DNA from: Syntrophales bacterium
Lineage (GTDB): Bacteria > Desulfobacterota > Syntrophia > Syntrophales > UBA2210
Length of the DNA: 64,000 nucleotides
Direction: 5' to 3'
Assembly (NCBI GenBank): GCA_963666365.2
Contig: CAXXNF010000002.1
Coordinates: forward strand, 1,920,001-1,984,000
This document shows positions 52,628-58,152 of the stretch, piece by piece. Positions within the stretch are counted from its first letter, which is position 1; each line of letters starts with the position of its first letter. Below the pieces are notes generated by a model, which was not told the origin of the DNA, searched no databases, and saw only the letters and a list, made by a program, of their open reading frames with translations. A program made the position numbers and the translations under genes.

Positions 52628-52704
52628 TGGTCGGGATGGCGCGATTTGAACGCGCGACTCCTGCGTCCCGAACGCAGTGCCCTACCAGGCTGGGCCACAT
52701 CCCG
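52628..52704 (-). tRNA. tRNA-Pro (anticodon CGG)
   Basis: CGGGATG acceptor stem, D-arm GCCCAGCCTGGTAGGGC, anticodon arm CTGCG-TTCGGGA-CGCAG, TTCAAAT T-loop, encoded CCA; 77 nt. Confidence 0.96.
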
Positions 52705-52790: not shown

Positions 52791-52819
52791 TTGTCAGTCA
52801 TGTTGTTTCGTGATATAGT
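52791..52819 (+). promoter_or_regulatory. Sigma70 promoter (extended -10) upstream of the DUF1178 gene
   Basis: TTGTCA, 17 nt ending in TGA, then TATAGT. Confidence 0.6.
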
Positions 52820-52849: not shown

Positions 52850-53266
52850 GTGATAGTTTATGATCTTACCTGCCAGGATAACCATATATTTGAGGGATGG
52901 TTCAAAGATCGTGCAGCCTATGAGAAACAGAAGGAGAAAAAGCTGATCGTCTGTCCCGTGTGCGGAAGTCTGGACATAGAAATGGTTCCATCGTCCGTGG
53001 CTATCGTAGGAAAGGGTTCGCATGAAAGAGAGGTGACGCAACCCCGGGACCGGACGCCCGCGATGAATCTGAAGATGCTGAGCGATTTCATTGACAAACA
53101 CTTTGACAATGTGGGGGACCATTTTGCTGAGGTCGCCCTGAAAATGCACCGTGGCGAAGAAGAAAAGAGAAACATAAAAGGGTACACCACAAAGACAGAG
53201 GAAGAAACGCTTAAGGAAGAAGGCGTACAGTTTATAAAAATCCCCACACCCAAATTTGACAGTTGA
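52850..53266 (+). CDS. DUF1178 family protein
   Basis: YDLTC..H.FEGWF, CPVCGS, NVGDHFAEVA. Confidence 0.85.
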   Translation: MIVYDLTCQDNHIFEGWFKDRAAYEKQKEKKLIVCPVCGSLDIEMVPSSVAIVGKGSHEREVTQPRDRTPAMNLKMLSDFIDKHFDNVGDHFAEVALKMHRGEEEKRNIKGYTTKTEEETLKEEGVQFIKIPTPKFDS

Positions 53267-53335: not shown

Positions 53336-55644
53336 ATGAAAGAACAGCACCATACCATCCTCGATCTGATCGGAAACACGCCCCTTGTGCAGATCAATGC
53401 ATTGAATCCCTATGTACAGGTCAAAATCTATGCAAAACTGGAAGGCGCCAATCCGGGAGGTTCCATAAAAGATCGTACCGCCCTCTATATGATTGAACGG
53501 GCCGAGGAGCGAGGCGTTCTCACAAAAGGCAAGGTCATAATCGAGGCAACCAGCGGCAACACGGGCATCGGACTGGCCATGGTGGCCGCAGCGAAAGGAT
53601 ACCGCCTGATTCTCGCCATGTCGGAGGCGGCAAGTGAGGAACGTAAAAAAATCCTCAGGGCCATGGGCGCCGAGCTTCTCTTCACGCCGGCACATCTGGG
53701 AACCGACGGCGCGATCGAAAAGATCTACGAGATGCTCCGCCGGTTTCCCGATAAATACTTCATGCCCGATCAGTTCAACAGTCCCGACAACGTTATGGCC
53801 CATTATTACGGCACGGCGAAGAAATATGGCGGCAAACGGAAGGAACCGTGACCTCGGTGATTGCCACATTGGGAACATCGGGCACTGCAATGGGACTTGC
53901 CAAAAGGCTCAAGGAATTAAACAGTTCGGTCAGAATCATTGGCGTGGAACCCTATCTCCGGCATAAGATACAGGGACTCAAAAATATGAAGGAGTCCTAT
54001 CGCCCCGGCATCTTTGAAAGAAACCTTCTGGACGAAAAGATACACATTGCCGATGAAGACGCCTTTGAAACGGCAAGAAAACTGGCGAGGACGGAAGGAC
54101 TTCTGGTCGGCATGAGTTCCGGCGCTGCCATGCACGTCGCCCTGGAACAGGCCGAGAAGATGCAGGAAGGGGTGATTGTCGCTATTTTCCCGGACCGCGG
54201 TGATCGTTATCTGAGCACGGAGCTCTTTTCCGACAAAGAAGAAACCTCACTTCAGATATACAACACAATGAATCGGACGAAGGAATCATTCAGACCCATC
54301 AGTCAGAAGCGTGTACTGATGCACTCCTGCGGTCCCTCCGTGCACGATGTTCCCCACATAGGCACCTACAGGCGGTTCATCGTGGCCGATGTGATCATGC
54401 GATATTTGAAACAGAAGGGCTTTCAGGTACTTCATGAAGTCAATATCATCGACATGGCCGACCGGTCAATAAAAGGCGCCGAACAGGCAGGCATCCCCAT
54501 TGAAGGATACACAAAGCAATATATTCAGGCTTTTTTCGATGATGTCGTCACGCTTAATATCAGCAGTGACATACTGTACCCCAAGGCAAGCGAAAATGTG
54601 GACTCGATGATCACCCTGGCCGAACAGCTGGTGGAAAAGGGGTTCGCCTACGAGAAACTGAGGTCCGTATATTTTGATATATCCAGGCTTGACGACTACG
54701 GGCTTCTTTCCAATATCGATCTTGGCCGCGTCCGCCACAGGCACACAATCGACCAGGATGAGTACGAAAAAGACAGCCCCGTTGACTTCACCCTGCTCAA
54801 GCGATCGACGCTGGCGGAGCTGAAAAAAGGCATCTATTGCAAGACGAAGTGGGGGAATGTCCGCCCCAGCTGGCATCTTGAATGCGCGGCCACTGCCCGC
54901 AAATATCTCGCCGATACGTTCGATATATTCGTATCCGGAGCCGATATCATATTCCCCCACTGCGAAAACGTGATGGCCATCGGGAAAGCAGCCACCGGAA
55001 AAATCCCGGCGACATATTGGATGCATGCGGAAATCGTAATGCGCCAAGGAAAGAAAATGTCCCGTTCTCTCGACAACACCTTTACGATCGGCGATCTTAT
55101 CGAAAAAGGGTATTCAGGAAAAGACCTCCGATATTTTCTCCTCAGTTCGCATTACCGGAAACCGCTCAATTTTTCTTTCGGCGCCCTCGACACGTCAAGA
55201 AATACGGTGCGAAGGCTCAATAATTTTATTCAGAAACTTATCCGCGCCGTCCCCGGAAAAGAACAGGCCGAACTGGATCAGCATGTATATGACGTCAGAA
55301 AGGCCTTTTCCGAAGCAATGGACGACGATTTTAACATCTCCGGCGCCCTTGCGGCGATATTCACTTTTGTCAAGACCATCCATTCGCTGCTTTCGGAACA
55401 ACGGCTTTCAAGAAACCAGATCGAGACGGTGATAGAAGTGCTGAAGAAAATCGACGATGCACTGGGCATCATGGATTTTCAGGAATCGACCCTCGAAAAA
55501 GACATTCGGGATCTGCTGAAACAGCGTGAAGGCGCACGAAAAGAGGCACGCTGGGAGGAAGCGGACCGAATTCGCCGGGAGCTGGCGGAAAGAGGGGTCA
55601 GACTTCAGGACACGCCTGAGGGAACCTTCTGGAGCATGGAGTGA
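53336..55644 (+). CDS. Cysteine synthase (PLP)::cysteinyl-tRNA synthetase-like fusion, interrupted by a 1-nt frameshift near 53818
   Basis: ORF 53336-53851 has IGNTPL, NPGGSIKDR, ATSGNTG, DQF. The -1 frame continues EEIWRQTEGTVTSVIATLGTSGT, then GMSSG and PDRGDRYLS, then CysRS-like YNT, CGP, WHLEC, FPH, KMSRS, HYR, DDFN, ADRIR. Confidence 0.85.
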
Positions 55645-55774
55645 ACAATCACTGTAATGATGGGGCTGAGGGTTCAATTGAACCGGCCTTTGGTGCATAT
55701 AGGCTTCCCCGAGCTGCCGTAAAAGGCATAATGTGTTTTGGCGGCTGCACGTACCAGGAGAGGAGAAACATATC

Positions 55775-56167
55775 ATGAAGCTTAGCGAGTACTTTGAAAC
55801 GGCGGAAGGCCTCGGCATTCTTTCAACAGCCGATTCATCGGGCAGGGTCAACTCAGCCGTGTACGGAAGGCCCCATGTCATCGATGAAGAAACAGTTGCC
55901 TTCATTATGGCCGAGCGCCTGACCTATTCCAATCTTCAGTCAAATCCCTCCGCCCTCTATCTTTTCAAAGAAGCGGGAGAGCACTACCTGGGGAAAAGAC
56001 TCTATCTGACCAAGACAAAAGAAATCAGTGATCAAAATATGATCGATGAGATCAGAAGAAGGCCGCATTATCGGCATGATTACAAGAAAGACCCGGGCGA
56101 CCAGAAGCATCTCGTCTATTTCCATATCGATCAAGCGCTTCCGCTGGTGGGAAGCGCTGCTCTCTGA
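55775..56167 (+). CDS. Pyridoxamine 5'-phosphate oxidase-like (flavin split-barrel) protein
   Basis: GILSTADSSGRVNSAVYGRP, NLQSNP; AGGAGAGGAG SD. Confidence 0.75.
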   Translation: MKLSEYFETAEGLGILSTADSSGRVNSAVYGRPHVIDEETVAFIMAERLTYSNLQSNPSALYLFKEAGEHYLGKRLYLTKTKEISDQNMIDEIRRRPHYRHDYKKDPGDQKHLVYFHIDQALPLVGSAAL

Positions 56168-57534: not shown

Positions 57535-58152
57535 ATGAGCAAAAAGGACAGAAAAATAATTCTGATTGCCCAGTGCCTCGTCAACCCTTACTGCAGGGTG
57601 CATCTTCTGGGCCAGAATTTCCCCCTCTCCCATGAATTGATGGACTATCTTATGGACAGACGGGTCGGCGTCATTCAATATCCCTGCCCCGAGACAACGG
57701 CCATGGGTCTCATGCGCAATCCCCAGGGCCGCCAGCAGTACGACAATATTTTTTTTCGCAGGCACTGCAAGGAACTTCTCTCCATTCCGATTCTCATGAT
57801 TAAGGAATTCCTTTCACAAAACTACCGGCTCACGTGCTTCATCGGTCTGGAAAACAGTCCCACCTGCGGAATCCACTGGGGGAAACACAAGGTTAATCGG
57901 TACCAGACGGAATCGCCGAATCCTGTGGAAACGCCCGATTCGAGGGACCCCGTGCTGATGGGAATCATGGCGGAAATTCTATCGGAAGAACTCTCACAGG
58001 AAGGCATACTGGTCCCATTCCTGGAATTTCCGACAAAAGAGCCGCCCGATTCGCCCAAACGAAAGGCCTTCTGGGACGATCTGAAGAGAACCGTGGAGCC
58101 TCATCTCTTTTCATCAGCCGAGACGACATCGAACGACACTGAAGAAGAATAA
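57535..58152 (+). CDS. TudS/DUF523-related putative Fe-S desulfidase
   Basis: AQCLVN, YPCPE and SPTCG cysteine motifs typical of the DUF523/TudS fold. Confidence 0.6.
   Translation: MSKKDRKIILIAQCLVNPYCRVHLLGQNFPLSHELMDYLMDRRVGVIQYPCPETTAMGLMRNPQGRQQYDNIFFRRHCKELLSIPILMIKEFLSQNYRLTCFIGLENSPTCGIHWGKHKVNRYQTESPNPVETPDSRDPVLMGIMAEILSEELSQEGILVPFLEFPTKEPPDSPKRKAFWDDLKRTVEPHLFSSAETTSNDTEEE

Follow-up and report, generated by a model that had tools for sequence, protein, structure and literature searches.

Background

HisZ is a class II paralogue of histidyl-tRNA synthetase (HisRS) that works as a separate subunit and is without an anticodon-binding domain. In the accessible part of a 2022 review it appears as the regulatory subunit of the ATP phosphoribosyltransferase HisG (PMC9437257), and the only paralogues of cysteinyl-tRNA synthetase (CysRS) named in that part are MshC and CysRS* (PMC9437257). 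MshC is presented as a CysRS paralogue turned ligase (PMC2922099, PMC9437257), and CysRS* of the Desulfobacterales as an enzyme that charges the SelC* tRNA and is without an anticodon-binding domain (PMC9437257, PMC5389517). SepRS has its kin in PheRS, not CysRS (PMC8762117). Here we describe a gene from a Syntrophales bacterium in which a CysM-type cysteine synthase is joined to a full-length CysRS-like module; it lies at 53336..55644 on the forward strand of a 64,000-nucleotide stretch of contig CAXXNF010000002.1, the whole of which is referred to below as the window, and the source genome comprises 4.0 Mb in 2 contigs and is 94% complete. No paper on a CysM-CysRS fusion was found in full-text searches, the coverage of which stops short of subscription journals and supplements.

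The locus encodes one 769-aa protein of conserved architecture and intact frame, and its CysRS-like half is a paralogue of the CysRS that the genome encodes elsewhere. We tentatively take the protein, with a probability of roughly 0.45, to be a cysteine synthase equipped with a module that would bind tRNA-Cys, and probably cysteine, and that would couple synthesis to tRNA-Cys or cysteine status.

A most likely intact gene behind an interrupted frame

In the window sequence the gene occupies two frames across 53336..55644 rather than a single open reading frame (ORF). ORF A (53336..53851, forward strand, 171 aa) contains the first half of the cysteine synthase and terminates in ...AHYYGTAKKYGGKRKEP before its stop codon; it leaves the correct frame after ...AHYYGTA, and the second half of the synthase together with the whole CysRS-like part is found in the -1 frame, which runs from stop to stop over 53755..55644 (forward strand, 629 aa). 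The break itself is located at 53817..53818 of the forward strand, inside the cysteine-synthase half, where one G is absent by comparison with reads and relatives (between GCG and GAA GAA). At this position AHYYGTAEEIWRQTEG is found in P0001, the intact relative closest to the window (769 aa, 97% identical), and six Syntrophales relatives have GCN/GGN GAR GAR there. Logan contigs of four public runs (X1, X10, X11 and X12) were compared with the window over 53400-54300, and those of 4/4 runs carry an extra G behind 53817, at depths of 3.5-9. The contigs of X10, X11 and X12, which derive from no more than three samples, the source of the window DNA possibly among them, show no further difference from the window over this interval, and the X1 contig is that of a relative with 37 differences.

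Because the extra G is present in the contigs of all four runs and close relatives are unbroken at 769 aa, we read the gene as intact and the break as most likely an assembly error or a rare variant. A programmed frameshift was considered and ruled out, since the contigs restore the frame. An earlier, sequence-only reading of this DNA had described the synthase as running in frame into the CysRS-like module; this holds for the relatives, in which both modules form one protein, and for the contigs, which restore the frame, and fails for the window, the frame of which is broken at 53817. The 53817/53818 deletion may have counterparts elsewhere in this genome of two contigs, where further frameshifts that seem to be present might likewise be errors. 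Short fusion frames elsewhere (G005, G009, G048 and G065, 486-624 aa) all stand at contig ends, a position that was verified for G005 and taken from coordinates for the other three; the fusion frame of G057 is 697 aa.

The cysteine synthase half

Pfam (PF00291) and NCBIfam profiles find, in order along the gene, PALP in two pieces, tRNA-synt_1e, DALR_2 and CysS_C. The CysM-type cysteine synthase is composed of residues 1-161 in frame 1 (53336..53818, forward strand; PALP, 144 bits; TIGR01136 profile positions 2-154) and residues 162-300 in frame 2 (53818..54234, forward strand; TIGR01138, 154.6 bits, profile positions 152-290). The first piece contains SIKDR, with the lysine that binds pyridoxal 5'-phosphate (PLP), at 53462-53476 and the TSGNT loop at 53549-53563; the second contains GTSGT at 53872-53886, the HKIQGLKN motif and MSSGAA. 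In enzymes of this kind the TSGNT loop holds the free substrate carboxylate and GTxGT is the glycine-rich phosphate loop. Split by the frame break, the two halves match TIGR01136 separately with 209.6-212 and 141.2 bits against a cut-off of 344.15, and the same domain scores 354-383 bits in intact Syntrophales relatives. The best sequence matches with solved structures are E. coli and Salmonella CysM (residues 7-301, 251-252 bits).

The PLP lysine (K45) is invariant in 87/87 fusions, and SxKDR, T/SSGNT and GTxGT are present in all 25 rows that cover the CysM half, with SVKER in one row. The motif H(K/R)IQGLKN marks a subgroup of this half, unfused members of which occur in many phyla. By its sequence the CysM half looks competent and is probably an ordinary O-acetylserine sulfhydrylase. 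The fusion is the sole TIGR01136 match at E<=1e-50 in 34/64 Syntrophales carriers, in a search with that profile only, which leaves room for other kinds of cysteine synthase; this distribution speaks against the synthase half being redundant in Syntrophales.

The CysRS-like half

A linker of about 10 residues, centred on SDKEETS (54235..54249, forward strand; TELFSDKEETSLQIYNTM), lies between the two modules. Beyond it come a catalytic body with a Rossmann fold and CP (connective-peptide) domain (54250..55197; PF01406, 269.4 bits; DFTLLKRSTLAELKKG among its motifs), a DALR_2 helical domain (55303..55470; PF09190, 43.2 bits) and a CysS_C anticodon-binding domain with the stop codon (55492..55644; PF23493, 34.4 bits), all on the forward strand. 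The match to TIGR00435 begins at 54250, as the sequence-only reading had placed the start of the module, and reaches 387.9-388.9 bits against a cut-off of 340, and the MshC profile TIGR03447 gives 162.1 bits against a cut-off of 485.1. A motif check on the window confirmed all of the motifs listed in that reading at their places: CGP (54328-54336), HIGT (54355-54366), NIIDMADR (54442-54465), DFTLLK (within 54784-54831), RPSWHLEC (54862-54885), DIFVSG (within the catalytic body), FPHCENV (54952-54972) and KMSRS (55054-55068). The anticodon-binding end that it had called intact is likewise present, as AR...W..ADRIR at 55537-55575 (RKEARWEEADRIR), and supplies the equivalents of E. coli R427, W432, D436 and R439.

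Residues are numbered below as in E. coli CysRS, from a phmmer alignment, and conservation was counted in a MAFFT alignment of the best 120 homologues, none of which is less than 61% identical to the query. In the E. coli enzyme zinc is held by Cys28, Cys209, His234 and Glu238, and Thr68 holds the substrate amine. The three zinc ligands said earlier to be kept, two Cys and one His, are indeed kept in the fused domain (C28 in 116, C209 in 119 and H234 in 120 of the 120 homologues), together with H37, G39, W205, H206, D229, K266, M267 and S268, each in 120/120, and S270 is almost invariant in the Syntrophales branch. The fourth ligand and the amine contact are replaced: E238 has become V in 111, T in 5 and I in 4 homologues and is Glu in none, and T68 has become I in 109 and V in 9 and is Thr in 1. 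At the position of H40, the second His of HIGH, T is found in 75, S in 35, N in 9 and G in 1, with His in none; H235 is C in 119/120, K269 is R in 120/120, so that none has the second KMSKS lysine, and Y33 to H, Q241 to I and S242 to G are each found in 120/120. The window conforms to this pattern, with HIGT and KMSRS instead of the HIGH and KMSKS signatures of canonical CysRS, I at T68, C at H235 and V at E238; in the canonical CysS of the same genome the sites H40, T68, H224-G227, H235, E238, Q241 and K269 are occupied by canonical residues.

The altered neighbours of the pocket are thus conserved across 120 relatives, an outcome that the sequence-only reading had itself proposed as a test, and the alignment indicates that the pocket changes are fixed and not the result of decay. 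Loss of the Glu ligand and the new Cys beside His234 would be expected to alter zinc coordination. In addition, a conserved insert, RSTLxELKxG, follows DFxLxK in the fused domain. The residues R427, W432, D436 and R439, named as anticodon residues of E. coli CysRS (PMC13449415), are present in 64/66, 66/66, 66/66 and 66/66 Syntrophales-type fusions, respectively.

A second copy under selection

The source genome contains a canonical cysS that matches TIGR00435 with 566.5 bits, besides the fused copy with 388.9 and a third CysRS-like gene with 299.3 bits. It also has a canonical cysK (431.5 bits), immediately upstream of which lies a cysE-like gene (163.7 bits, cut-off 210.65). Within this 94% complete genome SepRS (TIGR00470) has 0 matches and SepCysS (TIGR02539) a best match of 23.7 bits against a cut-off of 365.25, and with these results the check for a separate cysS or sepRS/sepCysS that the sequence-only reading had recommended is answered. 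Aragorn predicts a single tRNA-Cys(GCA) and a single tRNA-Sec in the source genome, which rules out a second tRNA-Cys as a private partner of the fusion; it also calls a tRNA-His(ATG) besides the normal GTG one, which may be a false or unusual call.

Full-length matches to the canonical cysS were found in 76/81 Syntrophales genomes. A contig end truncates the gene in G022, G029, G048 and G075; the best match in G056, which is without the fusion, has only E 1.5e-46. G078 (87% complete) is the sole carrier without a canonical cysS match and has the fusion only. A separate canonical cysS is also present in 5/5 tested carriers from other orders. These comparisons indicate that the CysRS-like half is a second copy and not the translational CysRS of the cell.

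Between the window and five Syntrophales genomes the nonsynonymous divergence (dN) is 0.28-0.36 for the CysRS-like part, 0.24-0.32 for canonical CysS and 0.18-0.27 for the two CysM pieces. Values of dN were compared in place of ratios because synonymous sites are saturated (proportion of synonymous differences, pS, 0.67-0.91); dN/dS was computable for the two CysM segments only, at 0.09 and 0.12. By this measure the CysRS-like part is under strong selection, its protein sequence changing at a slow pace similar to that of the housekeeping CysRS. A FastTree tree places 38 of the 39 fused CysRS-like domains and the unfused P0138 on one side of a branch with support 99, and 21 canonical CysRS, the fusion P0123 and the third paralogue on the other.

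That third paralogue (G000:C1:1256930-1258220, minus strand, locus L003) lies outside the window and is an intact ORF of ~430 aa, without a DALR or anticodon domain and, at 299.3 bits, under the cysS cut-off. It has HIGN and KMSKS, and GRPSWNIQD where canonical CysRS has GRPGWHIEC, thus N at H206 and D at C209. Genes like it are present in other Syntrophales genomes, and it might correspond to the CysRS* of the Desulfobacterales (PMC5389517). An in-frame TGA in this paralogue was considered and ruled out, since the TGAs fall outside the ORF, which is uninterrupted.

Distribution and the state of sister lineages

All of the best 120 homologues in a large protein collection, Syntrophus aciditrophicus among them, contain both domains in one protein, mostly of 769-771 aa, and go by the database name 'cysteine--tRNA ligase'. 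The fusion is present in 64 listed matches among 81 Syntrophales genomes and as a full-length match in 47/121 genomes sampled across the phylum; full-length fusions occur in metagenome-assembled genomes labelled Desulfobacterales, Desulfobulbales-type, Caldimicrobium, Desulfovibrionales, Polyangiaceae and others. Given its presence in 47/121 genomes, and as the sole synthase detected in roughly half of the carriers among Syntrophales, the fusion is probably central to how syntrophs and sulfate reducers obtain cysteine.

Sister lineages, assembled from 50%-identity representatives and loci from other orders, have the same architecture, with the CysRS-like half in every state of wear. KMSKS has been lost in 18/21 non-Syntrophales fusions (for example KVDEQ, KMSAE and KADDA), several of which are also without HIGH, and the Desulfovibrionales-type fusions have lost C28 and C209 too. 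KMSRS is found in P0121, L037 and the unfused P0138. The 18 fusions with a dead KMSKS have R427 in 14 (Lys in the other 4), W432 in 10 (Phe or Tyr in 8), D436 in 18 and R439 in 17. At the other extreme, P0123, a CysM-CysRS fusion of 768 aa, is fully canonical (HIGN, TDVEDK, HHQNE and KMSKS) and groups with canonical CysRS; it might represent the ancestral form, or else a second fusion that arose separately. As far as these alignments tell, what is common to the fusions is a competent-looking CysM and a CysRS-shaped body with anticodon readers, and aminoacylation chemistry does not appear to be common to them.

A model of the fusion protein

An AlphaFold model was built on the relative P0001 from an alignment of 87 fusions. 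Its mean predicted local distance difference test score (pLDDT) is 90.3 and its predicted template-modelling score (pTM) 0.74, with pLDDT 70-76 for residues 291-310 in the linker region. The N-terminal part superimposes on E. coli CysM (2bhs_A) with a template-modelling (TM) score of 0.96 on the target and a root-mean-square deviation of 1.7, and the C-terminal part on tRNA-bound E. coli CysRS (1u0b_B) with a TM score of 0.84 over 491 columns. When the halves were docked as separate chains the score was 0.35, against 0.00 for the best of 3 controls; the docking mark is reached by 116/157 solved complexes and 2/215 mismatched pairs, and values at 0.60 or under comprise 18/157 solved complexes and both of the passing mismatches. 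At least 89% of contacts agree between docking runs, and the pLDDT of the partner is at least 87. The docking score lends weak support to the idea that the two halves might dock.

What the fused module might do

In the reading that we prefer, a synthase with a coupling module, the N-terminal 300 residues would act as a CysM-type sulfhydrylase that makes cysteine, and the ~10-residue linker would tether this synthase to a full-length CysRS paralogue. The paralogue would bind tRNA-Cys, and probably cysteine, and would act as a sensor, regulator or docking module for the attached synthase. We infer the binding of tRNA-Cys, and probably of cysteine, because the CysRS fold, the Zn/Trp core of the thiol pocket and the four anticodon residues are kept, and coupling between the halves would be a further step of the same kind. 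A tRNA-binding coupling module is favoured because the fusions share CysM and the anticodon readers, not aminoacylation chemistry. Some adenylation or charging may nevertheless occur in the Syntrophales branch, since the ATP loops survive there in an altered but fixed form (HIG-T/S/N and KMSRS). This reading also agrees with an alternative mentioned in the sequence-only reading, namely that the protein channels newly made cysteine or senses tRNA. A more specific version, which we regard as rather doubtful, is a cysteine synthase gated by tRNA-Cys, in which the fused CysM would be switched on or off by a module that recognises the GCA anticodon of the single tRNA-Cys and may also sense whether this tRNA is charged; in Syntrophales the module may also load new cysteine on the tRNA through a remodelled Cys3-His zinc site.

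Several considerations tell against the coupling module. The residues H37, G39, K266-M-S and S270 are near-invariant, which is unexpected for a non-catalytic module and favours retained ATP chemistry. The docking score of the halves is weak, and the model and family counts rest on P0001 and not on the broken reading of the window. The FastTree tree has long branches and is unrooted. HisZ, the closest analogy, is without an anticodon-binding domain, so that the analogy is a loose one, and the neighbours of the gene are of a housekeeping kind that gives no functional hint, none of those in the window being linked to sulfur.

The main rival, which we consider clearly less likely than the coupling module, is a bifunctional enzyme in which the CysM half hands cysteine to an active, low-turnover CysRS half that charges tRNA-Cys, an arrangement that would keep free cysteine low or secure charging under cysteine scarcity. 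The persistence of HIG-T/S/N and KMSRS (120/120) together with C28, W205, C209, H234 and D229 would suit such an enzyme, as would the short linker, the intact anticodon-reading residues and a TIGR00435 score above the cut-off (388.9 vs 340), and the canonical motifs of P0123 mean that a synthase joined to a real CysRS exists in nature. Against this stand the canonical cysS kept by the carriers tested, with the exception of G078, and the hydrophobic residues that have taken the place of T68 and E238, to which roles in amine and zinc binding belong, throughout or almost throughout the 120 homologues; 0/120 have His at the end of HIGH, and 0/120 have the second KMSKS lysine. Most sister lineages, moreover, retain the fusion with dead ATP loops, from which it follows that channelling into charging is not a function common to the whole family. 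The fixed changes that cluster at the pocket (T68I/V, H235C, E238V/T/I, Y33H, Q241I and S242G), with the lost Glu ligand and a new Cys next to His234 that would imply altered zinc coordination, might instead reflect activation of some other thiol compound, such as cysteine persulfide, S-sulfocysteine from the CysM half or a cysteine analogue without a free amine, or the transfer of cysteine to a non-tRNA acceptor in the manner of MshC. S-sulfocysteine can be a product of CysM enzymes, and MshC provides the precedent of a CysRS paralogue turned ligase. We nevertheless consider this explanation improbable, since the fusion, unlike MshC, retains an anticodon-binding domain with its contact residues, TIGR03447 gives only 162.1 vs 485.1 bits, and no biosynthetic neighbours hint at a small-molecule product.

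The sequence-only reading had preferred a further possibility, in which an O-activated serine (O-phosphoserine or O-acetylserine) is loaded on tRNA-Cys and converted there by the PLP half, as a one-chain counterpart of SepRS/SepCysS. The joining of a PLP beta-replacement enzyme to a tRNA-Cys-shaped module with an altered amino-acid pocket invites such a proposal, and the results do not support it. The route is very unlikely because no fewer than 116 of the 120 relatives retain the Zn/Trp thiol core, because the TSGNT loop is intact and would bind a free carboxylate, which is absent from an aminoacyl ester, and because the fusion persists in sister lineages with a dead ATP site; the genome, furthermore, already has the cysE-like/cysK pair and a canonical CysRS, and neither SepRS nor SepCysS was detected in it. 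Least credible of all is the view that decay has left the gene, or its CysRS half, without function and that the break in frame is real. The frameshift at 53817/53818 in the window sequence would be its sign, but the contigs of 4/4 runs restore the frame, zero further stop codons occur in the 607 codons downstream of the break, dN is close to that of the essential CysRS where synonymous sites are saturated, and the full-length family is widespread in the phylum. Substitutions unique to this sequence with dN/dS near 1, the pattern of decay named in the earlier reading, were not seen; the changes are fixed and dN is near that of canonical CysS.

Gene neighborhood

The neighbors of the fusion in the window include pfkB, yicC, gmk, rpoZ, pyrF, a SpoU methylase, a type II secretion system F protein (T2SS-F), tRNA-Pro and a DUF1178 gene upstream, followed after the fusion by a photolyase and others. 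The tRNA-Pro(CGG) gene (52628-52704, minus strand) lies between the T2SS-F gene and DUF1178, and an Rfam search of the whole window found this one tRNA only and no leader RNA. The DUF1178 gene encodes a zinc-ribbon-like protein of 138 aa (52850..53266, forward strand; PF06676, 138.7 bits) and ends 69 nt upstream of the fusion. A promoter-like site upstream of it (52791..52819, forward strand; TTGTCA-17-TATAGT, 10/12 matches, with TG) is a possible start of a DUF1178-fusion transcript; the scan of the region gave 5 promoter sites vs 3.7 expected from shuffles, and the counts of promoters and terminators were near the shuffle expectation.

By hand comparison of coordinates, DUF1178 is directly upstream on the same strand in 61/64 Syntrophales carriers, and the other three are without a DUF1178 match. 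A tblastn search detected it in 5/5 fetched Syntrophales loci with an upstream flank (L100, which ends at a contig end inside the gene, is outside this count) and in none of 24 other loci (L020-L043), including 18 full-length fusions from outside the order. The gene is present also in Syntrophales genomes without the fusion, and its adjacency may reflect inherited gene order rather than a functional link. Across the 18 full-length fusion loci and the window, no neighbors were common beyond single orders. In five Desulfobacterales-type loci (L022, L023, L024, L027 and L038) an ORF of 320-363 aa begins 13-185 nt after the fusion, and that of L027 has no Pfam match. Two forward-strand ORFs flank the photolyase gene of the window, of 144 aa (55733-56167) and 205 aa (57535-58152), and neither has a Pfam match at E<=1e-4.

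Comparison with known systems

The annotation 'cysteine--tRNA ligase' is given to the fusion although this is a second copy whose catalytic residues depart from the canonical ones, and most sister lineages have a dead ATP site. If a tRNA module does control or feed the synthase, the fusion would show amino-acid synthesis being matched to translation in a novel manner and would represent a third kind of CysRS paralogue beside MshC and CysRS*; a widespread annotation would also be corrected. If gating by tRNA-Cys were to prove correct, the fusion would be the first amino-acid biosynthetic enzyme under the cis control of a pseudo-synthetase with recognition of the cognate tRNA.

With E. coli CysS (PDB 1LI5, 1LI7 and 1U0B) the fused half shares the order of Rossmann body, CP domain, DALR_2 and CysS_C, the fold (TM 0.84 on 1u0b_B), the residues C28, W205, H206, C209, H234 and D229 and the four anticodon residues. 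It differs from canonical CysS in scoring ~180 bits below the genome's own CysS, in falling into a separate tree group and in having HIGT, KMSRS, T68I, H235C, E238V, the RSTLxELKxG insert and a synthase partner. The other half shares with CysM (E. coli 2BHS, Salmonella 2JC3; TIGR01138) the fold, the PLP lysine, TSGNT, GTxGT and MSSGAA, and differs in bearing a C-terminal module of ~465 residues and in belonging to the H(K/R)IQGLKN subgroup. SepRS/SepCysS is similar in that cysteine formation is linked to tRNA-Cys and a PLP enzyme is used; SepCysS, however, is of a different PLP fold type, and neither gene was found in the source genome.

MshC and CysRS* resemble the fused module as CysRS-derived second copies with new roles, but the fusion, unlike them, keeps the anticodon-binding domain and is joined to CysM. 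TIGR03447, the MshC profile, is a model of 411 positions, and along the 629-aa frame it ceases to match at about residue 563, short of CysS_C. In its coupling logic the fusion might be compared with HisZ and HisG, or with the HisRS-like domain of GCN2. Like HisZ, it involves a synthetase paralogue attached to an enzyme that makes its own amino acid, here fused with it in one ORF. Aminoacylation motifs have been lost in sister lineages of the fusion. The fusion differs from HisZ in that the anticodon reader is kept, the partner is covalently joined and, in the Syntrophales branch, the ATP loops have been altered and not lost.

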